A DNA stretch of 64,000 bases from Acidimicrobiales bacterium (GCA_025362585.1 JANYFR010000045.1:2110-66109), one strand, 5' to 3'; shown: positions 1-17,301, counted from the stretch's first letter. Translations and numbers: made by a program. Notes: generated by a model not told the origin, from the letters alone.

Positions 1-1290
1 GAGGATGCACGTGCCTGCGGCAACCATTGTTGCCAGGCCCGTGCCCGAATTGACGGAGCAAATGCTCAGCGTGGTCGAGGCGAACATAATGGTGCCGTTG
101 CCGCTGCCCTTCGCGTACGTCTGGTACGTAGCACCATTCGAGTAACCAATCGAAGCGCTGGTCGTCGTCGTCGTGTAGCTGTTCGAGGTGTAGAAGGCCG
201 CGGTCTGGACGGCCCTGCTGATGGTCAGCGTGAAGGTAGTCGTGCCGCTGTCGAGGTAATTGATTGTCGGTGCCGCATCGCCAGTCACGCTGCAGGTGCC
301 GGCTGTCACGATGGTGATGAGGCCCGTGCCCGAAGTGACGGTGCAGATGCTCGGCGTGGTCGAGGCAAAGGTGATCGTGCCGTTGCCGCTGCCCTTCGCG
401 TAGGTCTGGTAGGTCCCCGACTGGAGGTACAGCACGGTCGCATTCGTCGTGGTCGTCGTGTAACTATTCGAGGTGTAGAAGGCCACGGTCTGGGTGGACA
501 CGGTGAAGGTGACGGTCGTCGGGGAAGAGGAGACCGCGGTGTAGTTCACGTCGGCCGCCTTGGTGGCGGTGACGCTGCAGGTGCCCGAGGACGTGGCCGT
601 CAGCGTGGCGCCGGGGGCCGAGCAGCCGGTCGCGGTGCCACCGTTCACCACGTAGTTCAGGGCGCCGGTGCCCGAGCCGCCCGAGGTCGTGAGGTTCACG
701 GTGTAGGCGGAGCCGTTGTAGGTGGCGCTCGTCGAGGTGATCGTCAGCGCGCTCTGGGCGGCCTGGATCACCGTGAACGACTGCACCTGTTGCACCGCCG
801 CCACGTAATTCGTCCCACCGTTGTCATTGAAGTCCAGCGTGCAGTTTCCGACTCCCACGAAGCTCACCAGACCACTCGAAATGGTGCAGACGCTCGGCGT
901 CGGCGACGTGATTGCCACCACGTCGCCGGACGTGGCGGTTGCTGTTGGCGAGTACGAGCCCCCGTAGATAGGCGACGATGGTGCGGTGGACGTCACCAGA
1001 ATCGAGTTTGGTGCCCTGTTAATGGTCAAAGTGAAGCTCGTCGTGCCACTGTCGAGGTAGTGGTTCGTTGACGCCGCATCGGCCGTGATGTTGCAGGTGC
1101 CGCCCGTCACGATGGTCGCCAATCCAGAGACCGAATTGACGGAGCAGACACTTGGTGTGGTCGAAGCGAATGAGATGGTTCCGCCGCCCGCGCCTTGCGC
1201 GAAGAGCTGGTAGGTGCCAGCCATGCTGTACGTCGTCGCACCACTCGCCGTCGTCGTTGAATAGGTGCCGCTGGTGTAGAACGCGACGGA
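1..1290 (-). repeat. Second repeat family (~95 aa; AFYTS...Y...G.G.GTI.FASTT.S.C.V.S..GL.T.V..GTC), three copies interleaved with two other Ig-like modules
   Basis: Copies lie at about 1020-1290, 200-486 and <1-201. They are near-identical at DNA level in places, e.g. gtgccgttgccgctgcccttcgcgta at about 92 and 377. Confidence 0.75.
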
Positions 1291-3723
1291 TTGCGGGGCA
1301 CCATTGACGGTGAATGACAAGGAGTTCGACGTGAACGGACCCTCGGCGGCGACAATTTGCACCAGACCGACCGTGTTACCTGTCAAAATGACATTGGCAA
1401 CACCGTTCGTCGCCGTGATTGTGCCCAGACCGTTGACGGTGCCCGATCCACCATTCTGAGCAAAAGAGATGCCGGCATTGAACGACGTCTCGACGTTCGC
1501 GAACTGGTCTTTCAGAGCCGCCGAAGCACTGCACGTCGTATTCCAGATGATGTTGGACGAACAGCCACTCAGGACGAGTTGCGTGGGCACCCCGGGCCCA
1601 TTTGGCGTGAAGGCGGTGCTCGTGGCGGAGGTCACGTTATTCGACGAGGCCGTCATGGCGTAGTTGGTGCCGACAACACCAGCGAACGTGCAGTTCGCGA
1701 CGTTGACGACGCCCGTCACGGAGGTCAAGTTCGTGCACGACGAACTTCCCAAACCCCCGGAGTAGGTGATCGAGATTGTGCCCGAAGAAGTCGTGGCGAC
1801 GTTCCCGGCAGAGTCTTCCAGCTTGACGATGGGCTGCGTGGTCATCAGCGATTCGGAGGCACCGGCGACGGGTTGACTCGTGAACACTAGTTGTGTGGCG
1901 ACGCCGGGGCCGGTGAGCGTCATGGCACTACTCGTCACCGAGAGTGCACCTTGCACCGCGGTCAAGGTATAGGGAGTGCCGACCGTGCCCGCCAACGTGC
2001 AGGTGGTGACGTTGATGACGCCATTGAGCGGCGCCAAGCCGGTGCAGTGCTGGAGACTGCCGTTACCCGAAACCGAGAGTGCGATAGAGGTCGTCGAGGC
2101 CGTGACGACGCGGCCCCCGGAGTCGTAGATAGTGATGACGGGCTGGGTCGGCAACGTTTGGGCGGAGATGCCGGCCGCCGGCTGCGTCGTGAAGACCAGG
2201 CTGGCCGGCACACCGGTGATATTGAACTCCGTGCTCGTCGCACTGGTGAGGCCACTACTCGAAGCGGTCATCGAGATCTGGGTGCCGTAGGCACTGCCCT
2301 GGCACCCAGTGAAGGTGACCACACCATTACTCAAAGATGCACTGCATCCGCTCAACGTGCCGCCACCGGTCATGCTCAAGTTCACCGAAGCGTTGGAGCT
2401 GGTCACGACATTGCCAAAGGCGTCCTCAATGGCGACGACCGGTTGGGTGGTGAACGGCGTCGAAGGACTCGCGCTCGACACTCCGCTGGGCTGGGTAGTG
2501 AAAACGAGTTGACTCGCGGCACCCGCGCTCGACACGTTGAACGTGCTACTGGTCGCTGGAACGACGCCCGATGCCGTCGCCGCCAACGTGTAGGGAATGG
2601 GCAGTGTCACTTTAGAGATCGGGTCGTAGAGGTAGCCACCCTGGAAGGTGCAGTTGAGTGAGTTGCCAACCCCGTTGGTGATTGTCACTGTCGCACATCC
2701 GCCGGAAAGGATGCCTCCAGAGGCGCTCAGGTTGACGGTCCCGGACCACGCGGCGTCGATCGACCCATTCAAGTAGACGCTGACCGCGGGCTGGGTCGCC
2801 AACGCCGAACCGGAAGGTCCGCCGACGGGTTGGGTGGTGAAGACGAGGTAGGGAGCGGACGAGCCGCCAATGGTGAACGCTGGCGACGTCGAGGCCGACG
2901 AGAGGTTCCCGTCAGTGGCCAGCAAGGTGTAGTTGCTCCCGGACAAGTTGATTGAGCAGCCCGAGAACGTAACGACACCCGCCAATTCGTTGCCACTACA
3001 GCCCGACAGGATCGCCCCGTTCGTACCCGTCTTGATCGACAAGATGACTGGTGACAGATCAGTGGTAACGGGATTGCCCATAGCGTCCTCCACGACGACC
3101 ACCGGCTGCGTGTTGAAGGGCAGGCCAACGGAATTTGTTCCCGACGGCTGGGAACTGAACACGAGCTGCGTCGGGGCACCGGCACTCGAAGTTGAGTTCG
3201 CGCTCGACAGGGGGTAGTCGACGACGAAGCTATTCAGGTAGGGGCCGCCGGCCCCAGTGACGGTCACCGTGATGAGTTGAGGGGCATCAATCACGCACGT
3301 CGGAGTAAAGGAGGCGGTGTTCGCGTTCCAGTACTGGACTTGGGTGATCTGCGCGCTGAACAGAGTGAGGTAGGAGGAGGGCACGGTAAGTGGCACGGTG
3401 GTCTGGTAGTAACCCAACGTCTGGCACGATGTAAAGAGGCTCAATTGCGATCCGATGCCGGCAATGGCCTCTTGGGAGACGCTGCCGAGCACGATGTCGG
3501 CAGTTGCCAGGCGACGATGTTCCGCAGAGGCCGAGATTGACGTGGAGAAGGCAATGATCAGTGCCACCGACGCGAGACCTAAGACGACCAGGGTCAGCAG
3601 CACTTCGATAAGGGTGTCACCCGCCTCGGAGAAACGCGTCCGAGTGATGCCCTCAGCGGACGATTCGCTAATACGCGGCTCGCTGAGTTGTGCGAAACGG
3701 TCGGAGCGTTGGAGGAATCTCAC
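1..3723 (-). CDS. Giant type IV pilin-like adhesin (prepilin N-terminus plus tandem Ig-like repeats), at least 1241 aa, 3' end beyond the window
   Basis: Read manually: no stop codon in this minus frame from GTG 3723 (GTGA overlap with the upstream stop) to position 1. N-terminus MRFLQ...FSEAG|DTLIEVLLTLVVLGLASVALIIAF is a class III signal with Glu+5 and a hydrophobic helix. The body is Thr/Ser/Gly-rich beta repeats. Confidence 0.9.
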   Translation of the reverse strand, partial: MRFLQRSDRFAQLSEPRISESSAEGITRTRFSEAGDTLIEVLLTLVVLGLASVALIIAFSTSISASAEHRRLATADIVLGSVSQEAIAGIGSQLSLFTSCQTLGYYQTTVPLTVPSSYLTLFSAQITQVQYWNANTASFTPTCVIDAPQLITVTVTGAGGPYLNSFVVDYPLSSANSTSSAGAPTQLVFSSQPSGTNSVGLPFNTQPVVVVEDAMGNPVTTDLSPVILSIKTGTNGAILSGCSGNELAGVVTFSGCSINLSGSNYTLLATDGNLSSASTSPAFTIGGSSAPYLVFTTQPVGGPSGSALATQPAVSVYLNGSIDAAWSGTVNLSASGGILSGGCATVTITNGVGNSLNCTFQGGYLYDPISKVTLPIPYTLAATASGVVPATSSTFNVSSAGAASQLVFTTQPSGVSSASPSTPFTTQPVVAIEDAFGNVVTSSNASVNLSMTGGGTLSGCSASLSNGVVTFTGCQGSAYGTQISMTASSSGLTSATSTEFNITGVPASLVFTTQPAAGISAQTLPTQPVITIYDSGGRVVTASTTSIALSVSGNGSLQHCTGLAPLNGVINVTTCTLAGTVGTPYTLTAVQGALSVTSSAMTLTGPGVATQLVFTSQPVAGASESLMTTQPIVKLEDSAGNVATTSSGTISITYSGGLGSSSCTNLTSVTGVVNVANCTFAGVVGTNYAMTASSNNVTSATSTAFTPNGPGVPTQLVLSGCSSNIIWNTTCSASAALKDQFANVETSFNAGISFAQNGGSGTVNGLGTITATNGVANVILTGNTVGLVQIVAAEGPFTSNSLSFTVNGAPQSVAFYTSGTYSTTTASGATTYSMAGTYQLFAQGAGGGTISFASTTPSVCSVNSVSGLATIVTGGTCNITADAASTNHYLDSGTTSFTLTINRAPNSILVTSTAPSSPIYGGSYSPTATATSGDVVAITSPTPSVCTISSGLVSFVGVGNCTLDFNDNGGTNYVAAVQQVQSFTVIQAAQSALTITSTSATYNGSAYTVNLTTSGGSGTGALNYVVNGGTATGCSAPGATLTATSSGTCSVTATKAADVNYTAVSSSPTTVTFTVSTQTVAFYTSNSYTTTTTNATVLYLQSGTYQTYAKGSGNGTITFASTTPSICTVTSGTGLITIVTAGTCSVTGDAAPTINYLDSGTTTFTLTISRAVQTAAFYTSNSYTTTTTSASIGYSNGATYQTYAKGSGNGTIMFASTTLSICSVNSGTGLATMVAAGTCIL
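1578..3165 (-). repeat. Five to six tandem ~103-113 aa Ig-like repeats starting (Q/Y/S)LVF(T/S)(T/S)QP, each with a Cys pair
   Basis: The LVF motif Leu codons start at 3165, 2847, 2508, 2199 and 1890, with a degenerate QLVLSGC at 1578. Spacings are 318, 339, 309, 309 and 312 nt. Cys pairs include LSGCS...FSGCS and LQHCT...TTCTL. Confidence 0.8.
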
Positions 3724-5153
3724 GGCAGGAGCATTCCGAAGGTCATGGCCTGGAGGCCCGTGCCATGCAACGTGACAGTCATGGTCGTCGGCGCCAATGC
3801 CCCCACCATTGCGGAGCCCGTCTTTTGTCCGCCCGTCTCACTATTCCCGCCAGCACACGTCACCGTGGTCGTGCCGCTCCCCGTCAGGCCGGGCGTGTGA
3901 TTGAGTCCGCTGGTGCCGTCGTTCTGACACGCGTTGCCAACTGGCTGAATCTGTCCGGTCTGCAGGTTTGGAATGACCGTCAGTGGCGTGTTCGCGGACC
4001 AGGAGATCGACTCGCCAGCGTCGGTCGATTCGGCGTCGGCACTGATCGCCTCCCATCCAGTAGCGAGAACACCGGTGGGGCTCACGACGGAAATGTTCGA
4101 GAAAGTCACCACCGAGGGATCACTGCCCTGGACCCTTTGATAAAGAGCCGGGTCCCCGGGGATGCCGGTATAAAACGGGACGCCACCAATCGCGTTGCCG
4201 AGAAACGCCTGAGGGTACGTAGGCAGGTACCACGGAAGGATCGTCCCCCCCGAGAGGCTCAGGCAGAAGTACAGCGTGAAGTTGTTGGGCAGTGCCACCG
4301 ACATTTCAAGACATCCACCGCCCTGGGCCGCCAACAAGGCCGCACCCTTCACTGAAGAGAAGTCCACGAAACAAATTGAAGTTGAGTAAGTACCAGAACC
4401 CGGTGTCGCAAAACTGCAGGTGGAGTTCGAACTGGAACTGACCGGTGATCCCGTCGCCGTTGACGAGGCACTGGCAACGGGACTGGCCACCAGTGAATAC
4501 GGGAAGTTATTAGAAGGGTCGGTGACTGGAAAGACAATTTGGCTGACATTCTGCGCCGAGATCCATTGCTGCGCGGATGCGTCGCACACCGATTGATTGA
4601 TACTTTTCACGCACGTCGCCGTCGGGGGGCTCTGCGAACCGGCGATGTCGTAGGCGAGGGTGGTCGTGCTCACGGGTGCGAGCGACCCTGCGGTGCAGTA
4701 AAGACGCACGAGAGAGTGTGCGGTACTTCCGGCGATCGGCACCAGCACATAGGAGATTGTGGTGAGGAAGACACCAGTCACTGAGTTGAGGTCTGACTCG
4801 AGACCCATCAACTGAGTTCCGGTCCCGAACCCGCATTGCGGCGTGCTGGACGCAGCTGTCGTCACGTACGACGCACCCTGAATGTCCTTTTGGTAGTTCG
4901 CCGAGACGACCTGCGCGTCAGAAGTGTGGCTCAGACGGGTCGACACGCCAGATTGGAGAGAGAAAACAGAGATTAAACCGAGCGAAATTGCGCCAACAAT
5001 GAGAGGTAAAACCGTCACGACAATGAGTAATTCCACCAGCGTGAAGCCGTCTCGCGCGTTGTTAGAGCGTGAGGGCGGTCGTGGTGTGTTCGGGTGTGAC
5101 GGACCACAGTCATCCGGAAACGACAGAACCCGACCCGACCAGCACTTTTTCAT
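3720..5153 (-). CDS. Type IV minor pilin (PilW/PulJ-like) with a C-terminal CshA-NR2-like adhesin domain
   Basis: G|FTLVELLIVVTVLPLIVGAI prepilin motif. The C-terminal half carries CFVDFS, LPTYPQAFLGN, FYTGIPGDPALYQ and ADAESTDAGESISW. ATGA overlap with the pilC stop. Confidence 0.8.
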   Translation of the reverse strand: MKKCWSGRVLSFPDDCGPSHPNTPRPPSRSNNARDGFTLVELLIVVTVLPLIVGAISLGLISVFSLQSGVSTRLSHTSDAQVVSANYQKDIQGASYVTTAASSTPQCGFGTGTQLMGLESDLNSVTGVFLTTISYVLVPIAGSTAHSLVRLYCTAGSLAPVSTTTLAYDIAGSQSPPTATCVKSINQSVCDASAQQWISAQNVSQIVFPVTDPSNNFPYSLVASPVASASSTATGSPVSSSSNSTCSFATPGSGTYSTSICFVDFSSVKGAALLAAQGGGCLEMSVALPNNFTLYFCLSLSGGTILPWYLPTYPQAFLGNAIGGVPFYTGIPGDPALYQRVQGSDPSVVTFSNISVVSPTGVLATGWEAISADAESTDAGESISWSANTPLTVIPNLQTGQIQPVGNACQNDGTSGLNHTPGLTGSGTTTVTCAGGNSETGGQKTGSAMVGALAPTTMTVTLHGTGLQAMTFGMLLP

Positions 5154-6502
5154 CCAACCTTGACCTGGTTGTAAATACCGTACATAGCCGAAATCAACGC
5201 CACCGCAACGAATCCAACAACCACGCCCATAAAAATGATGATCGCGGGTTCAAAGAGGGCAGTCGCCCTCTCCAGCTTTGTCTCCAATTCGCGGTTGTAG
5301 TAGGCCGCCGCGACTTCTAACTGCTGGTCAAGAGTTCCGGTCTCCTCGCCAACGCGGAACATCTGGCGCGCCGCGGCGGGAAACAGGTTGGTGAGTGCGA
5401 TGGGCTCAGCGAGGCCCTGACCCTGCATCATTGCTTCGCGCACGCCTTCAAGGGCTCTGCGGTAAACGGCATTGTTGGCCGAGTCCGCGGTTACGGACAT
5501 CGAACGCGGCAAGTCCACGCCGGCGCGAAGCATGGACGCGAGCACTCGACAGGTCCGCTCAATGATTGCCGTTTCGGTCAGGTCCCCGATCACTGGCAAC
5601 TTAAGTATCAACTTGTCGAGGCGGGCCTTGCCGCCTTCGGACCGGCGCATGGCAATGAATCCAACAACGACAATGATGAGGAACGCGATTTCGGCGTACC
5701 ACCAGTTCGCCATGAACCCTGTTGTATTGAGCAACATCCTAGTGACCAGTGGCAGTTTCGCGTGGAGGGACTTGAAGAAGACCTGGAATCGGGGCATTAC
5801 GAAGACCGCTAGTACGAGAACCGTCACCACCGACATTGCTGCGACGACGGCTGGATAGATCAAGGCCGCGGTGACCTTGCCACGGGCCTTGGCGTCGCGG
5901 TCCATGTAGTCGGCGAGCTGATTCAACACTGCGTCGAGACTTCCGGTCAGTTCCGCTGATTCCAGAATGCCCACGTAGAAGTTAGGAAAGGCCTCGGGGT
6001 GGAGCGATGCCGCGGCGGCGAAGGTGTCACCGGCGCGCAGGCTGTCGACCATCTCCAACAAGACCTTCTTCATCATCTTGTTTTGGGTCTCTTCGACGAT
6101 GACCTCGAGCGCCTCCATGATGGGGATTCCCGCGCGCATGAAGACGGCCAACTGGCGCGTGAAGTTCATGACGTCTTGACGCGGCACCCGCTTTTTGGTG
6201 ATCTCGAACTTCATGAGGCTCTGGCGCTGGCTGACCTCGAGGGGCTGGAGTCCGCGCGCGAGCAGCGCAATGTGTGCCGCACCGGTCGACGTGGCGACCT
6301 CGACGCCGGAGACTTGGCGACCCGTCTCGTCGAGGGCCTTGTAACGGAACTTCTCGGGCTTGCTCGGCTTGCTCGGCTTACTCGCCTTCTTAGCCTTGTT
6401 GGGCTTGTTGGGTTTGCTGGCCCTGTTGGGTCGGTTGGCCTTGGGAGCCTTGCTCGGCTTCTCGGGCTTTTCCGTCGAACCACTGCGACTGAGAATGCTC
6501 AT
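5150..6502 (-). CDS. pilC: Type IV pilus inner-membrane platform protein (T2SS F family)
   Basis: RQLAVFMRAGIP, AELTGSLDAVL, YPAVV and GEETGTLDQQL motifs with three TM segments. Start moved to ATG 6502, which overlaps the pilB stop (the ORF track starts at 6820). Confidence 0.92.
   Translation of the reverse strand: MSILSRSGSTEKPEKPSKAPKANRPNRASKPNKPNKAKKASKPSKPSKPEKFRYKALDETGRQVSGVEVATSTGAAHIALLARGLQPLEVSQRQSLMKFEITKKRVPRQDVMNFTRQLAVFMRAGIPIMEALEVIVEETQNKMMKKVLLEMVDSLRAGDTFAAAASLHPEAFPNFYVGILESAELTGSLDAVLNQLADYMDRDAKARGKVTAALIYPAVVAAMSVVTVLVLAVFVMPRFQVFFKSLHAKLPLVTRMLLNTTGFMANWWYAEIAFLIIVVVGFIAMRRSEGGKARLDKLILKLPVIGDLTETAIIERTCRVLASMLRAGVDLPRSMSVTADSANNAVYRRALEGVREAMMQGQGLAEPIALTNLFPAAARQMFRVGEETGTLDQQLEVAAAYYNRELETKLERATALFEPAIIIFMGVVVGFVAVALISAMYGIYNQVKVG
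6350..6472 (-). repeat. 9-bp-period repeat encoding 14 x-[K/R]-[P/A] tripeptides at the PilC N-terminus
   Basis: Encodes EKPEKPSKAPKANRPNRASKPNKPNKAKKASKPSKPSKPEK; DNA units such as cttgctcgg x2 and cttgttggg. Confidence 0.85.
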
Positions 6503-8355
6503 AGGGTGTACACGCTTCGTATGACCTCCGAAATTGAGGTGATGTCTTGGGTAACGAGGTTGATGGCCTCTTGGCGCAGGGTTCGCATACCCTGCTTTAC
6601 TGCCATATTGCGTAACTCCTCCTGGGTCGCCCAACCGACGACGAGCCGTCGCAGCTCGGGGGTCATCACGAGTAGTTCGTAAATACCGATCCGGTCCTTG
6701 TAACCGGTGTTGGTGCAGAAGTTGCAACCAGTGCCCTGGTAGAAGCCATCCTTCGGCGTTCCGCCACTCTCTTCGTAGAAGATGAGCTCCTCGTCGGTGG
6801 GCGTGTAGGGCGACTTGCACGAAGGACAGATTCGACGAAGCAGACGCTGACCCACGACAGCGAGCACCGACGAGGCGATGAGGAACGACTCGATGCCCAT
6901 GTCGAGGAATCGGTGAAGTGCCGACACGGAGTCGGTGGCGTGTAGCGACGAGACGACGAAGTGGCCCGTGAGTGCTGACTGGACGGCCACCCGAGTGGTC
7001 TCGACGTCGCGGATCTCGCCCACGAGGATGACGTCGGGGTCTTGGCGCAGAATCGAGCGAAGACCAGTCGCGAATGTCAGACCGGCCTGCTCGTTCGTCT
7101 GGATCTGATTGATCGAGGGGAAGACGTACTCAACCGGGTCCTCGATGGTCATGACGTTGAGCGACGGGTTGCTGACCTCGCTGAGCGTGGCGTAGAGCGT
7201 GGTTGTCTTGCCACTACCGGTTGGACCAGCGCAGAGCACCATCCCAAACGGCGCTCGCACGATCTTAGAGTAGGCGGCGTGCGTGTCGACGGGCATGCCG
7301 AGGTCGTTTAGTCGCAGGACCGACCTGGTCTTATCGAGCAGTCGCATCACGCAGCTCTCACCCATGATGGTTGCCACCGTGGCGACGCGAACGTCGACCT
7401 CTTTACCGTCAATCATGACCGTCAACTGTCCGTCCTGGGGGCGTCGGCGCTCAACGATGTTCATGTTCGCCATGATCTTGATGCGACTCACGAGCCCAGG
7501 ACCGATCGCTGCCGGGAGCTGCAGTATCTCCTTCAGCGCACCGTCAATGCGGAAGCGCACGCGAACGATATCGTCGGCGGGCTCGATGTGGACGTCCGAC
7601 GCACGATCGCGCATCGCTTGAGTGAGGATGCGGTCCACCACCTGGACAACCGGCGCGTCGTCGGTAACAATGTCGGGTTCGTTGTTGTCAACGCTGCGAC
7701 GACGCGAACCTTCGACCGACTCGAAGACTTTGACCAGGCTGTCGACGTTGCCTATAGCGCGGTAGTTGCTGTCGATCGCCCATCGGATGTCACTGAGCGG
7801 CGCGATAAGTAGATGGACCGTCTTGCCGCTCGCCTTGCTGAGCGCCGCGCGAAGTTCGTCACTCGGCTCGGCCACCGCGATGTAGAGGCCGTCTTCGTCG
7901 AGTCGGACGGGGAAGGCCATTTGGGCTCTCGCGTCGTCTTCGGGCAAGAAATTGAGGACTGCCGGATCGACCACGTCACGTCGAAGGTTCGCGACGTCGA
8001 ATCCGAAGAATGCCGCGAGGGCGTGCGCGAGTGACTGCTCGCTCAACGCTCCGAGACTTACCAAGACTTCACCCAGACGGCCGCCCGACTCGCGTTGCAT
8101 TTCGAGCGCCTGATCTAGTTGGCTCGGCGTGATCAGGTTGCTGCCGATCAACTGTTCGCCGAGGCGAACGTTGCGCGGTCCTGTGTCGCCATCCATTGGA
8201 CCGTTCCCCACGTCACGGCCCGGTGTGGGCGTCAGCCGCTGACTGGCGTCGACCCTGCTCTGATCTTCTATGACCGTCGCGACCGATCCAGCGACCGAAC
8301 CCGTAGGGGTTTGATCGCTGGTGCCCTCGTCACGGTTCTTTCTTTTGAATGCCAC
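6499..8355 (-). CDS. pilB: Type IV pilus assembly ATPase (GspE/PilB) with an N-terminal MshEN-like motif
   Basis: Walker A GPTGSGKTTT, Walker B ILVGE, Asp boxes, and Zn motif CPSC...CNFC. Start at GTG 8355 with GGAG SD; the ORF track gives 8382. Confidence 0.95.
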   Translation of the reverse strand: MAFKRKNRDEGTSDQTPTGSVAGSVATVIEDQSRVDASQRLTPTPGRDVGNGPMDGDTGPRNVRLGEQLIGSNLITPSQLDQALEMQRESGGRLGEVLVSLGALSEQSLAHALAAFFGFDVANLRRDVVDPAVLNFLPEDDARAQMAFPVRLDEDGLYIAVAEPSDELRAALSKASGKTVHLLIAPLSDIRWAIDSNYRAIGNVDSLVKVFESVEGSRRRSVDNNEPDIVTDDAPVVQVVDRILTQAMRDRASDVHIEPADDIVRVRFRIDGALKEILQLPAAIGPGLVSRIKIMANMNIVERRRPQDGQLTVMIDGKEVDVRVATVATIMGESCVMRLLDKTRSVLRLNDLGMPVDTHAAYSKIVRAPFGMVLCAGPTGSGKTTTLYATLSEVSNPSLNVMTIEDPVEYVFPSINQIQTNEQAGLTFATGLRSILRQDPDVILVGEIRDVETTRVAVQSALTGHFVVSSLHATDSVSALHRFLDMGIESFLIASSVLAVVGQRLLRRICPSCKSPYTPTDEELIFYEESGGTPKDGFYQGTGCNFCTNTGYKDRIGIYELLVMTPELRRLVVGWATQEELRNMAVKQGMRTLRQEAINLVTQDITSISEVIRSVYTL

Positions 8356-8612
8356 ATTCACTCCGTACTGTCCTTGGTGCACTTGGCTTTGAGTCGTTAT
8401 CTATTTCTGATGTCGAGAAATTCAATCCAACTGAAACCGAATCTCACATACATTCAGGATAACTACGTTGACACTTTTAATCGCGGAATTGTCGTTTCTT
8501 TCAGAGAATTGATTAACGAGGTGCAAGAACAAAGAACCCTCAACACATCGCATGAGGTGCAGCACGCATTCCGCGAAGATCAAAATGATGTCGAGTCATC
8601 GCCTCAGATGAC

Positions 8613-8633
8613 GATGAAGAAATTTTCTTCATC
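8613..8633. promoter_or_regulatory. Perfect 21-bp palindrome, candidate operator or hairpin
   Basis: GATGAAGAAA-T-TTTCTTCATC; extends with one bulge to 8607-8638. Confidence 0.55.
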
Positions 8634-8659
8634 TCATCCCAGCGCCAGGAGGTCAAAAT

Positions 8660-8719
8660 ATGAATTCACAACAAATGAACAACGCGTTGCCCATTGAAAC
8701 AGCCTGCAACGGGTCGTAG
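8660..8719 (+). other. Candidate 19-aa small ORF (MNSQQMNNALPIETACNGS)
   Basis: Perfect SD AGGAGGT at 8647-8653, 6 nt before the ATG; TAG at 8717-8719. Confidence 0.25.
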
Positions 8720-9205
8720 CGCAAAGTTGGTGATCGCCTGTTGGTGTGGCAACGCCTCTCGGATGTCCGGAGCGCACCGTTGTGAATGAAGTTAATGGGT
8801 TTAGATGCGCAAGTAAAGGTGTAGCAATTGACATCGAAGGTAGTGAAGACTGACGCATACTGTCGAGTCGTTCCGATGGCGACGATGGAAACCGGCCTGA
8901 TTTCGGCATGACTGAGCCACACAACTCGGTGTTTACCAAATATTCCCTAATTCTTCGGAGCATGGTGGATGGCTCAAATGACTCAGCGTGGAGAACATCT
9001 CCTCATTGCATGTTGCGATTGTCCAGATCGAGAAGAACCCAGAAGTTTGGTCAAGGCAATTTTGTGGCAAAATCACCGCTTGCCATTGAGTGGGACTGTC
9101 CCGAATCTCCGTGACCAGTGAATTTGAGCGGCATTCAGCCAAAAGAACCGCGCCGAGGGACCAAGGATTGGGTATCGTGCGAGCAGAATGGTTGGAGGCG
9201 AGCAA

Positions 9206-10528
9206 ATGAATATTGCCACGTTCGTTTCGTTGGTGTTCAAGAACGAACTCCCATTCCGCATCGAGGCCTACGACGGCAGCAGCGCCGGACCGATGGTTGC
9301 ATCGCCAGCGAGCGAGATCACCGTGCGAATCCTGCGCCGAGAAGCACTGACGCGAATCTTCACACATCCTGGCGAACTAGGCGTCGCGCGGGCCTACGTC
9401 GCGGGCGACATCGACGTCGACGGTGACCTTGACGCCCTGTTCGATCTCGTGGCGCCCGGGGCAGCCCAACTGCTGCGAATCGAGAATCTTCGATCTCTGC
9501 TATCGGTCGTCGGCGTCGCGGGGCTAAGACCAATCGCCCCTCCGAGCATCGAGGCCCGGCAACGCGGCGTGCTGCACAGCCGTTCGCGAGACCGTCAAGC
9601 GATCTCGCACCACTACGACGTCTCCAATCGCTTCTACGAATTGGTTCTCGGACCGTCGATGACGTACTCGTGCGCCGTCTTTCGCTCGCCCGAGGACCCC
9701 CTCGAGGAGGCGCAACGTCGCAAGGTCGATTTGGTGGCGAAGAAGTTGGATCTGGCGCCGAGCAGGCGGCTACTCGACGTGGGGTGTGGTTGGGGCACAA
9801 TGGCCATCCACGCCGCGCGCACTTACGGCGCGAATGTGGTGGGCATTACGCTCTCCGAGCCTCAGCGGCGTTTCGCCATTGAGCAGGCGCGGTTGGCGGG
9901 CGTCGAGAACCTCGTCGAGTTTCGCATTCAGGACTACCGCGACGTCAATGACGGCCCGTATGACGCGATCAGCTCGATCGGCATGTCCGAGCACGTGGGA
10001 CGTAAATCCCTGGCGCCATACTCCCAAGGGCTCTTTGACCTCCTGCGCCCGGGTGGACGATTCCTCAATCACGCCATTGGACGACCGACCTCCTTCGAGG
10101 CCGACCCCGACCCGTCCAGGCGCTCCGAGGCGACCCACCAGTTACAGATTGCCCTCGGGATGCGGGGTCCGTCGAGGATCGGGAGCCCCTTCATCGAGCG
10201 CTACGTTTTTCCTGACGGCGAACTCCACGAGGTGGGCACGCTGGTCTCGACCTTCCAAGCCCATGGTTTTGAGGTCCGTCATCTCGAAAGTCTGCGCGAA
10301 CACTACGCCTTGACGCTTCGTCAGTGGGTGACTAATCTCACCAAACGATTCGACGAGGCAGTCGAAGAGGTTGGCGAGCAGCGGGCCCGGGCCTGGCATC
10401 TCTATATGGCGGTCTCGGCCGTGGGCTTTGCGCGCGGCCACCTGGAGATCCACCAGATTCTCAGTGTCCGCCCCGAAAAGGGACAGAGCGTGATGCCACT
10501 TCGACTTAACTTTGAACCTGGGTTCTAG
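9206..10528 (+). CDS. cfa: Cyclopropane-fatty-acyl-phospholipid synthase family SAM methyltransferase
   Basis: HYDVSNRFY, MTYSCA, LLDVGCGWG, YVFPDG and HYALTL motifs; GGAGG SD before ATG 9206. Confidence 0.9.
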   Translation: MNIATFVSLVFKNELPFRIEAYDGSSAGPMVASPASEITVRILRREALTRIFTHPGELGVARAYVAGDIDVDGDLDALFDLVAPGAAQLLRIENLRSLLSVVGVAGLRPIAPPSIEARQRGVLHSRSRDRQAISHHYDVSNRFYELVLGPSMTYSCAVFRSPEDPLEEAQRRKVDLVAKKLDLAPSRRLLDVGCGWGTMAIHAARTYGANVVGITLSEPQRRFAIEQARLAGVENLVEFRIQDYRDVNDGPYDAISSIGMSEHVGRKSLAPYSQGLFDLLRPGGRFLNHAIGRPTSFEADPDPSRRSEATHQLQIALGMRGPSRIGSPFIERYVFPDGELHEVGTLVSTFQAHGFEVRHLESLREHYALTLRQWVTNLTKRFDEAVEEVGEQRARAWHLYMAVSAVGFARGHLEIHQILSVRPEKGQSVMPLRLNFEPGF

Positions 10529-15537: not shown

Positions 15538-16306
15538 TGACGGCCTCCACGACCTCGTCGTCGTCGCCGCCGCCCAGGTAGGCATCGAGGACGAGTGGAT
15601 TTGACCTCACGGCCGCGGGCTCACCCGACACCAGATTCGTGCCCTGGTGCATCACGCTCACCCAAGTGCAGAGGTTCATCACGAACTCCATGTTGTGCTC
15701 GACGATTAAGAACGTCTTGCCGGACTTATTGAGTGTGCGGATTTTCTCCGCGACCTGATTGATCAGCGTGAGATTGACCCCACCAGCCGGTTCGTCGAGC
15801 AAGATCACGTCGGGGTCGGCGACGAGCACATAGGCGAGCTCGAGGAGCTTGCGCTGGCCGTACGAGAGGGCGCCGGCCTCGAGGTCGGCCAGTCGAGCGA
15901 TGCCCACGAAGTCGAGCCACTCCATTGCCGAGGCGACTTCGGCCTTGGAGGACTTCGAACGCGTCAGGCCGCGCAGCCAGCTCTCGTCGCGCTGGGTCGC
16001 CACCAGCATGTTCTCGAGCACGCTGATGCGACCAAAGATCCGCGTCAACTGGAAGGTCCGCCCGATACCTCGCTCAAACACCACGTTCGGACGCGCGTTG
16101 GTGATGTCGTTGCCTTCGAACGTGACGGTGCCGGCGTCGGGTTTCACGTAGCCAGTGATGACGTTAAAGAGTGTTGTCTTGCCCGAACCGTTTGGCCCGA
16201 TGAGCCCGGTGATGCTCCCCTGCTCGACGTCGAGCGAGCAGTCGACGAGGGCCTTGACGCCCCCGAACGACTTCGACACGTTCTGGGCACTTAGCAGCGT
16301 CGTCAC
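15530..16306 (-). CDS. LIV-type ABC transporter ATP-binding subunit (LivG-like)
   Basis: GPNGSGKTT, LSYGQRK, LLDEPAGG and LDAYLG motifs. Confidence 0.9.
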   Translation of the reverse strand: MTTLLSAQNVSKSFGGVKALVDCSLDVEQGSITGLIGPNGSGKTTLFNVITGYVKPDAGTVTFEGNDITNARPNVVFERGIGRTFQLTRIFGRISVLENMLVATQRDESWLRGLTRSKSSKAEVASAMEWLDFVGIARLADLEAGALSYGQRKLLELAYVLVADPDVILLDEPAGGVNLTLINQVAEKIRTLNKSGKTFLIVEHNMEFVMNLCTWVSVMHQGTNLVSGEPAAVRSNPLVLDAYLGGGDDDEVVEAVNG

Positions 16307-17301
16307 GAGGCCACCCCAGCGACCGCGGCCTCATTGGAGGCGACGGCCGCCTTCTCCCGTTCGGCCTTCTTCGTGACGCGGTCACGCAGGAAGACGACGA
16401 CGCCCTGGGGCATGAACATGATGACGATGAGAAAGAGGGCGCCGTAGAGGAAGAGGTACAGGTACGGGTACGACACGGTGAAGTACTGCTGGCTTGCCTC
16501 GAGGATCAGCGCGCCGAGGAGCGGGCCGGTAAGTGTGCCGAGTCCGCCGAGGAACGCCATCAGCGCGATGCTGATGTCGAAGAAAGGATCAAACGCGAAC
16601 TGGGGGTAGATCTGGCCGAGGAACATTGCGTAGACGGCACCGGCCATGCCAATCGTGAAGGCCGACATGGTGAAGCCGGCGCGCTTCACGGCAGCGACCT
16701 TGACGCCGAGTCCGAGGGCCCGGTCCTCGTCGTCGCGAATCGCCAATAACTGCAAGCCGAACCTCGAGCGGCGTACGACCGCCGACACGACAGTGATGAA
16801 AATGAGAATGCCGAGGGCCACGTAGTAGAAGGGGACGTTGTAGTAGCTCGCGTTCCACTGGATGAAGGGCAGCGCAATGCCCGCCGACCCTCCGGTGAAT
16901 GAGAAGTTGAATGCCGCATTCTGAAAGATGAATAGCGTCGCGATCGTGATGACGACGAACGTGTGGCGCCGCACCCGCAGCGCCGCCCAGCCGATCGGCA
17001 GGGCGACCGCGGAGGCGGCGAGTCCGCCGAGGGGGACGAGCCAGAACATGCCGGCCCCCGGCGCCATGTGCCAATGCGTCGAGGCGAGCGCCATCGTGTA
17101 AGCCCCGACCCCGTAGAAGACGCCTGATCCCAGGGCGACGTAGCCCGAGTAGCCCGAAAACATATTCCACGACGTCGCGCAGGCCATGTACAGCAAGGTG
17201 AGGACGGCGATCGCCATGTAGCTCGGATTAGACACCCACATGGGAAAGAACCCGAACAGGGCGATGGCCGGCAACCACCACAGGTTCTTCTTTTGACGCA
17301 T
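16303..17301 (-). CDS. LIV-type ABC transporter permease (LivM-like)
   Basis: Multi-TM protein with SRFGLQLLAIRDDE and LGGLGTLTGP. Confidence 0.88.
   Translation of the reverse strand: MRQKKNLWWLPAIALFGFFPMWVSNPSYMAIAVLTLLYMACATSWNMFSGYSGYVALGSGVFYGVGAYTMALASTHWHMAPGAGMFWLVPLGGLAASAVALPIGWAALRVRRHTFVVITIATLFIFQNAAFNFSFTGGSAGIALPFIQWNASYYNVPFYYVALGILIFITVVSAVVRRSRFGLQLLAIRDDEDRALGLGVKVAAVKRAGFTMSAFTIGMAGAVYAMFLGQIYPQFAFDPFFDISIALMAFLGGLGTLTGPLLGALILEASQQYFTVSYPYLYLFLYGALFLIVIMFMPQGVVVFLRDRVTKKAEREKAAVASNEAAVAGVAS

Follow-up and report, generated by a model that had tools for sequence, protein, structure and literature searches.

The stretch of DNA considered here, called the window over its whole length of 64,000 nucleotides, comes from an Acidimicrobiales bacterium (GCA_025362585.1, JANYFR010000045.1:2110-66109). 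The gene of interest is the open reading frame (ORF) at 3720..5153 on the minus strand, which encodes a protein of 477 amino acids (aa) and probably specifies a minor type IV pilin built of two modules, which would display an adhesin head on a retractile pilus. A preliminary description of the locus, made from the sequence, had proposed a minor pilin fused to a module resembling non-repetitive domain 2 of the streptococcal adhesin CshA (CshA_NR2), and all seven of the peptides it quoted are found in the translation of this ORF. The span it assigned to the module, 3723-4379 (residues 259-477), is correct at its end but begins too late, the head reaching 4433 (approximately residue 241). The features of the gene are the following:

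5046..5153, minus strand: class III (prepilin) leader peptide, residues 1-36, with Gly36 as its last residue (from the sequence, the TIGR02532 match and the conservation of G36)
4473..5045, minus strand: pilin module of the mature protein, residues 37-227, with a hydrophobic alpha-1N, E41 at position +5 and a beta-sheet (from the AlphaFold2 model, conservation and the family profile)
4434..4472, minus strand: Ser/Thr-rich linker SASSTATGSPVSS, residues 228-240 (from the sequence and low model confidence)
3723..4433, minus strand: CshA_NR2-like (polymer-adhesin-like) beta-sandwich head, residues 241-477 (237 aa), C-terminal (from PF18651, the domain model, Foldseek and homology)
4011..4037, minus strand: acidic motif D373-A-E375-S-T-D378-A-G-E381 (DAESTDAGE), a candidate cation or ligand site (from conservation)

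The gene and its pilin module

The ORF is not a chance one, since more than 545 homologues of its product (E <= 0.001), 28 syntenic loci and independent gene calls all agree. Three short contigs carrying the identical protein were independently called with the same 477-aa product and the same 4-nucleotide overlaps with the adjoining genes; these contigs are at most 8.1 kb long and thus do not span the remaining operon, for which the complete chromosome of a relative was used. The 120 homologues listed range from 312 to 756 aa, mostly approximately 460-500 aa, with a query coverage of 83-100% in almost all of them. The family amounts to hundreds of sequence clusters, and all of the genome loci recovered belong to uncultured Acidimicrobiales or Actinomycetota. 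No paralogue of either the pilin module or the head is present in the window, the G+C content of which lies between 56 and 69% in 2-kb steps. Two larger variants were seen, namely P0193 (1247 aa), a pilin in which approximately 750 residues extend beyond a head at residues 232-491, and P0195 (1027 aa), with the head at residues 860-1027 behind a long insert; this extra sequence suggests that the modular design has been elaborated further in some lineages.

The leader (residues 1-36) is basic and is followed by FTLVELLIVVTVLPLIVGAI, with the prepilin cleavage motif RDG/FTLVELL (G36/F37-T-L-V-E41, the slash marking the cleavage site). With 20.9 bits, the match to the NCBIfam prepilin model TIGR02532 exceeds the cut-off of 16.3, and the Pfam N_methyl model, which matches 51 members of the family alignment of 59 pilin-type homologues used for conservation and for the profile, stays just under its cut-off in the protein from the window (18.8 against 21.2). 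Gly36 and Glu41, the latter being Glu+5 of the mature protein, are kept in at least 90% of the 59 homologues, and Cys107 and Cys153 are invariant in the pilin module. In the full-length AlphaFold2 model, built on the same homologues (mean predicted local distance difference test, pLDDT, of 83.5), a 55-residue alpha-1 helix (39-93) precedes the strands of a beta-sheet (96-223), with the pLDDT reaching 81-96 in blocks across residues 81-220; the long helix followed by the sheet is, as modeled, the fold of a pilin. Consistent with that, the family profile finds only solved pilin N-termini among the PDB sequences (7tgg, E 7.9e-5). Together with the adjoining pilB and pilC genes, which are linked by 4-nucleotide overlaps, these results support the assignment of the N-terminal half to the type IV pilins, as the preliminary description had it. 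Residues 228-238, nearly the entire linker, have a pLDDT below 50, and the full-length predicted template modeling score (pTM) is only 0.56, which indicates two modules with no fixed relative orientation.

The architecture, comprising the pilin module (37-227), the linker (228-240) and a head (241-477) that also occurs on non-pilin LPXTG proteins, is that of a modular pilin as defined by Raynaud et al. in 2021, who described more than 1,200 such proteins in 264 architectures and showed the von Willebrand factor A (vWA)-bearing PilB of Streptococcus sanguinis to be an adhesin (PMC8179133).

The head domain and its relatives

By homology and by model the head begins at approximately residue 241 (its first cysteine being C246), and the protein ends with it. 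When residues 239-477 are modeled alone, a 14-stranded beta-sandwich with one short helix is predicted at high confidence (pLDDT 92.2, pTM 0.90). Three conserved cysteine pairs, 246/261, 281/297 and 409/433, probably form disulfides, and the pairing of C281 with C297 is further indicated by their joint replacement in 4 of the 59 sequences. The domain is acidic: its 237 residues include only 3 Lys+Arg but 11 Asp+Glu, and its pI is 4.2. D373, E375, D378 and E381 of the acidic motif are invariant across the 59 pilin-type homologues, and the pattern ADAE.TD...E is at least 90% conserved in an alignment of 22 sequences, 16 of which are adhesin-type heads. Polymer adhesin domains are antiparallel sandwiches of 12-16 strands, a range that includes the 14 strands predicted here, with a conserved cation site on a central ridge (PMC7726212), and by analogy the acidic motif may likewise mark a cation site on such a ridge. 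Insertions and deletions among the homologues are concentrated between FLGN and PFYTG, after ALYQ and around GNAC...LTG, a pattern that, as judged in the alignment and not on a structure, fits the published picture of a conserved core with variable loops.

The Pfam CshA_NR2 model (PF18651) matches residues 347-474 of the protein at E 4.2e-6 and 27.5 bits, above the gathering score of 24, and is matched by 27 of the 59 homologues at E <= 0.01 (best 1e-9). Taken alone this match is modest, and firmer evidence comes from transitive homology through the heads of fibrillar adhesins. When 1.84 billion cluster representatives were searched with a profile of the head (alignment A2), 606 were retrieved at E <= 0.001, of which 454 reached <= 1e-10 and 171 <= 1e-30. 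At least 44 of the best 150 have a prepilin motif and the head at the C-terminus, and at least 38 carry it at the N-terminus (approximately residues 40-260) with a tail of 100 to approximately 1,900 residues behind, which in 24 of the 38 ends in an LPXTG-like motif. A Pfam scan of nine N-terminal-head proteins placed SpaA_3 directly behind the head in eight of them; DUF7507 stalk repeats occur in eight of the nine, in some along with DUF11, the ninth having SpaA and SpaA_2, and the Pfam LPXTG anchor was recognized in two.

Two of these relatives connect the head to the full length of the Pfam model: P0164, which matches model positions 2-195 with 49.5 bits, is 40.5% identical to the head from the window (BLASTP E 1e-40), and P0214, which matches positions 2-196 with 63.2 bits, is 36% identical to it (E 4e-30). 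More generally, BLASTP aligns the head end-to-end with the heads of LPXTG adhesins, mostly at 35-42% identity (32% in the weakest case) with E values of 1e-27 to 1e-45, and the pilin-type and adhesin-type heads have a colinear series of signatures in common (PT[YW]..[AF][FY]LGN, G.PALYQ, G[WYF]...ADAESTD..E.I.W, GNAC, KTG.A and G.GL[EQ]A..FG). One adhesin-type homologue is an LPXTG protein of Microlunatus elymi (WP_143986190.1); another, from Subtercola lobariae (L030:9794-11194), has the head between a signal peptide and SpaA_3 and ends in an LAATG anchor. Pfam finds only SpaA_3 and no CshA_NR2 in the Subtercola homologues, so the model appears to be insensitive to this branch, and the link to the family is drawn via P0164 and P0214. 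Judged by its sequence, then, the head is truly homologous to the domain at the tip of actinobacterial fibrillar adhesins and belongs to a peripheral branch of the Pfam CshA_NR2 family, aligning end-to-end with heads of which two match the full model; its relation to streptococcal CshA itself is remote. The CshA_NR2-like character proposed for the module in the preliminary description is thereby borne out, both by a PF18651 score above the gathering threshold and by this homology.

The heads of the Actinomycetia LPXTG fibrillar adhesins (Microlunatus elymi, Subtercola lobariae), homologous and colinear at approximately 30-42% identity, end like that of the pilin in FG[VL]L[VL]S. They differ in lacking the C281-C297 pair of the pilin version and in their position, which is N-terminal after a Sec signal peptide and is followed by SpaA_3, DUF7507/DUF11 repeats and a sortase anchor. 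Among the 59 pilin-type homologues, in contrast, neither SpaA_3 nor stalk-repeat matches occur. The modular pilin from the window has no NR3/SpaA-like domain and repeat stalk behind the head, although most described CshA_NR2 proteins do; the pilus would stand in for the stalk.

Structural comparison gives a weaker version of the same result. The Foldseek search that had been proposed as a check, made with the domain model against the PDB, returned weak matches, the best of those listed being to the structural neighbors of NR2 rather than to NR2 itself. The best was the adhesin domain of PrgB in its DNA-bound form (6ged_A, E 4.1e-3, probability 0.95, TM-score 0.36), along with GbpC (6cam, probability 0.94, TM-score 0.37), the N-terminal domain of Sgo0707 (4igb, probability up to 0.80, TM-score 0.38), the V domains of AgI/II, SspB and Pas and, lower down, Epf; all of these named matches are weak (E 4e-3 to 3e-2, TM-scores 0.23-0.38). 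With the full-length model as the query the scores were diluted by the presence of two modules, and the domain alone ranked its matches more cleanly. The top matches are the published structural neighbors of CshA_NR2 (PMC10952558), so that the modeled domain falls, with weak scores, into the structural neighborhood of this family.

The head thus has points of likeness and difference with two groups of characterized domains. Like the NR2 domain of Streptococcus gordonii CshA/CshB (PF18651; PMC10952558), it is a predicted beta-sandwich with the same structural neighbors, is acidic and would be outermost on a fiber, and like CshA_NR2-like domains in general it has been shuffled among carriers and has variable loops; it differs in having no direct sequence match to CshA/CshB, no NR3 or SpaA_3 behind it and a pilin as its carrier in place of a repeat stalk with a C-terminal anchor. 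The polymer adhesin domains of PrgB, GbpC and AgI/II (SpaP, SspB) (PMC7726212) are its best structural matches; the predicted 14-stranded sandwich is in keeping with them, and the invariant acidic cluster could answer to their cation site. The similarity is nevertheless weak, and the modular pilin is without the Ala-rich and Pro-rich flanks and the LPXTG anchor.

The pilus operon and its neighbors

The gene lies within a run of four consecutive genes in the order pilB, pilC, modular pilin, giant pilin, the other three of which are:

6499..8382, minus strand: PilB-like assembly ATPase with MshEN and T2SSE domains (T2SSE E 1.1e-124, MshEN 5e-14)
5150..6502, minus strand: PilC-like platform protein of 450 aa with two T2SSF domains (T2SSF E 2.6e-52)
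1..3724, minus strand: giant pilin-like protein with Ig-like repeats, cut by the window edge (from the sequence and its orthologues)

Consecutive genes overlap by 4 nucleotides at 6499-6502, 5150-5153 and 3720-3724. The ATG of the modular pilin at 5153 overlaps the stop codon of pilC (ATGA, in GGATGA), and its own stop at 3720-3722 overlaps the GTG start of the giant pilin (GTGA). Such overlaps among four consecutive genes suggest translational coupling and a fixed stoichiometry. The start of PilB lies at 8361 according to the gene call (620 aa) or at 8382 in the longest ORF (627 aa), and ahead of the T2SSF domains the N-terminus of PilC (approximately 6380-6502, minus strand) forms a Lys/Pro-rich low-complexity tail, KPEKPSKAPKANRPNRASKPNKPNKAKKASKPSKPSKPEK.

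The same gene order recurs in 28 loci, with one genome scanned per species, from metagenome-assembled genomes (MAGs) of Acidimicrobiaceae and Acidimicrobiales, a few of them labeled only as Actinomycetota; many originate in palsa, bog or fen, or belong to MAG series with no stated habitat. The giant pilin has a 35-aa leader and then G/DTLIEVLL, with Asp at +1 and Glu at +5, and extends for more than 1,240 aa inside the window. Its orthologues in the same position, in one of which Big_3_5 repeats were recognized, reach 1,500 to more than 3,400 aa (L002-L028; for example L019:11277-20114 and L024:11130-21382), far beyond the 860 aa cited as the most extreme among modular pilins (PMC8179133). The giant pilin is a probable partner of the modular pilin in the pilus.

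Further downstream, the relatives encode a 222-aa protein, a classical small pilin (G/FTLIELLIV, 121-142 aa when mature) and a PilT-like ATPase of 365 aa. In the complete chromosome of a relative (L034:18413-21419) these last two (small pilin of 140 aa, ATPase of 365 aa) are accompanied by a DUF429 protein and a prepilin peptidase, which has A24_N_bact and Peptidase_A24 domains and is encoded on the opposite strand; Pfam recognized no genes of the PilM/N/O type in the operon of L034. The 221/222-aa protein (L034:17094-17762, L005:17556-18221) has a hydrophobic N-terminal helix, GAVLLLALAYIIAISLIVGALA, with no Glu at +5, and its position between the genes for the giant and the small pilin makes it a candidate for a GspK/PilX-like tip cap. 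Right after the giant pilin of L034 comes a 339-aa, extremely Gly-rich protein with GGAGG-type runs (16078-17097), which is not there in L005. The presence of a classical small pilin, pilT and a prepilin peptidase in the operons of relatives supports the status of the modular protein as a minor pilin, on which the preliminary description had already settled, and argues for a retractile pilus rather than a secretion pseudopilus.

Divergent to pilB lies a methyltransferase of the CMAS family (cyclopropane/mycolic-acid synthase) at 9188-10528 on the plus strand (E 1.4e-86), which is also a neighbor in six related loci; the approximately 800 bp between the two genes (8383-9187) fall within the part of the window with the lowest G+C content. 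In Rubrobacter, pili are controlled by a WhiG-type promoter (PMC8325347). The corresponding motif, TAAA-N-GCCGATAA, has no match in the window, and no match to its -10 box lies upstream of pilB.

The sequence of the window is present in rock and sediment metagenomes (DNA runs). In addition, a soil metagenomic RNA-Seq run (X5) contains short contigs that are 90-99% identical to pilB, pilC, the modular pilin and the giant pilin (window 1-8500), two of which fall within the gene of the modular pilin (4021-4188 and 4462-4676). Such libraries can contain DNA, so that these contigs are possible, weak evidence for transcription in a related strain.

Presentation of the head, alternatives and significance

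Minor pilins of this build are known from S. sanguinis, in which modular pilins with vWA and lectin modules form an adhesive complex, proposed to be located at the pilus tip (PMC8179133, PMC9934059), the lectin module of PilC having been characterized in a companion paper (PMC9934059). The likeness of the protein described here to S. sanguinis PilB (vWA) and PilC (concanavalin A (ConA)-like lectin) extends to a class III signal peptide, a pilin module, a short linker and a bulky C-terminal module, which in both cases is not specific to pilus biology, and further to the status as minor pilins, the monoderm host and a machine of the PilB/PilC/PilT type. The presence of two different modular pilins in the one pilus of S. 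sanguinis also provides a precedent for two adhesive subunits. The differences lie in the module, which is CshA_NR2-like here instead of vWA- or ConA-like, in the larger pilin module (approximately 190 aa), in the partner, a giant pilin of 1,500 to more than 3,400 aa where S. sanguinis has a second module of approximately 50 kDa, and in the host, an uncultured environmental member of the Acidimicrobiales known here from sequence and model.

In the mechanism that we propose, a prepilin peptidase, the gene of which was found in relatives, would cut the 36-residue leader after Gly36 within the cleavage motif described above. The mature protein of 44.6 kDa would then join a pilus built by PilB and PilC via its hydrophobic alpha-1 helix with Glu5, as its fold, motif and operon suggest, and would do so as a low-abundance subunit, most likely alongside the giant pilin and the small protein lacking Glu5 in a priming complex at the tip. 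From there the flexible Ser/Thr linker would hold out the 237-residue head, a probably disulfide-stabilized beta-sandwich homologous to adhesin heads, which may bind an extracellular ligand, possibly at a ridge bearing the DAESTDxGE motif with a cation held in it. Retraction by the PilT ATPase encoded in the operons of the relatives would finally convert binding into attachment and pulling. The location at the tip, the binding of a ligand and the existence of two adhesive subunits, all of which the preliminary description had put forward, are thus features that we infer. Ligands of this fold vary, including dextran, DNA, lipoteichoic acid and host proteins (PMC7726212, PMC10952558), and the binding of fibronectin is not transferable from CshA; fibronectin is an implausible ligand for an organism of rock, sediment or soil, for which an environmental polymer or the surface of another cell is more likely. 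A more daring form of the proposal is offered as a tentative possibility: in uncultured Acidimicrobiales of soil, peat, rock and sediment, the head would have been swapped between two unrelated display systems, a sortase-anchored fibrillar adhesin and a retractile type IV pilus, and would act on the latter as a cation-dependent grappling hook for a polymer of the environment or for a partner cell. Its companions in the tip complex would be the giant pilins, the largest noticed to date, and this complex would differ from those of model bacteria, which have four minor pilins.

It has to be noted that several observations weigh against the interpretation as a pilus-borne NR2-like adhesin. On the side of the head, the PF18651 match spans only positions 87-195 of the 196 in the model, i.e. 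its second half, and the remaining 32 of the 59 homologues did not match it at E <= 0.01. Searches of the PDB with the protein, the 59-sequence profile, the Subtercola homologue or P0214 recovered no CshA or CshB chain, the sequence matches there being only to pilin N-termini or SpaA-type stalk domains; Foldseek with the domain model gave no PDB match at E <= 0.001 and no TM-score above 0.38, and a CshA/CshB entry is absent among the 50 Foldseek matches listed. On the side of the pilus, the major pilin, pilT and pilD are known from relatives only and probably lie outside the window; Glu5 is kept, and hence the modular pilin has no mark of a position at the very tip. The RNA matches are assembled contigs from a related strain, in which DNA may be admixed.

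Part of this evidence can be read differently. The fact that at least 90% of the family retain Glu5 (E41), as shaft subunits do, together with the flexibility of the linker at 228-240 and the low inter-domain confidence (pTM 0.56), would suit a pilin scattered at low frequency along the shaft, with the head projecting sideways to give multivalent adhesion along the fiber, and a location in the filament body has been considered possible for modular pilins if the linker is flexible enough (PMC8179133). We regard this arrangement as unlikely, given that a pilin module of 20 kDa would carry a bulky head of 24 kDa, that the modular minor pilins PilB and PilC of S. sanguinis are proposed to be at the tip and that the gene lies between pilB/pilC and the giant pilin, apart from the gene for the small pilin.

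Still less probable is a role of the head in assembly, either in docking the giant pilin or in attaching to wall polymers of the same cell and thereby letting the priming complex cross the thick monoderm wall. Strict co-conservation and translational coupling with the giant pilin gene speak for such a role, as does the ability of polymer adhesin domains to bind wall polymers such as lipoteichoic acid (PMC7726212); the same head, however, caps long LPXTG-anchored stalk proteins at their far N-terminal end, a position characteristic of adhesins that face outward (PMC10952558).

Some type IV pili contain minor pilins that bind DNA, and the best Foldseek match is to a DNA-bound adhesin domain, which could imply that the head binds extracellular DNA in the manner of PrgB and that the pilus serves in DNA uptake. 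The structural match to PrgB is weak, and the head is strongly acidic with 3 basic residues, whereas PrgB uses surface Lys and Arg residues for DNA (PMC7726212), all of which makes this reading very improbable. Finally, the idea that the CshA_NR2 match is a chance or compositional effect on a Ser/Thr/Gly-rich pilin tail with no shared domain, for which one could cite a score only 3.5 bits over the cut-off and the half-length and missing matches noted above, is barely credible in view of the end-to-end BLASTP matches to adhesin heads, the two full-model matches, the colinear signatures common to both groups, the confident beta-sandwich model and the agreement of the top structural neighbors with those reported for NR2 (PMC10952558).

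A bimodular minor pilin presenting an adhesin head therefore remains the reading we favor, and its two components are each familiar: modular pilins have been surveyed, and domain shuffling is known to have placed CshA_NR2-like heads on carriers that differ in stalk and anchor (PMC10952558). Their combination was not found described in the literature searched. The CshA_NR2 survey never mentions a pilin or pilus (PMC10952558); "CshA" is absent from the main text of the modular-pilin survey, and both "CshA" and "PF18651" are absent from those of its supplements that were searched (PMC8179133); a full-text literature search combining polymer adhesin domains with type IV pili yielded nothing relevant. 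Precomputed Pfam annotation does show PF07963 together with PF18651 on some of the homologues, so that the architecture is already visible to routine pipelines.

No principle is changed by this finding. Modular pilins are a proposed explanation for the functional breadth of simple type IV pili, and the few modules that have been studied (vWA, ConA-like lectin) all come from pathogens or commensals; the same modular strategy is now seen in an abundant and poorly known lineage of soil and peat. The head of a wall-anchored fibrillar adhesin can, it appears, be mounted on a pilin, which extends the shuffling of NR2 to a carrier outside the published survey, and as a soluble domain of 24 kDa it could reveal the attachment targets of these organisms.

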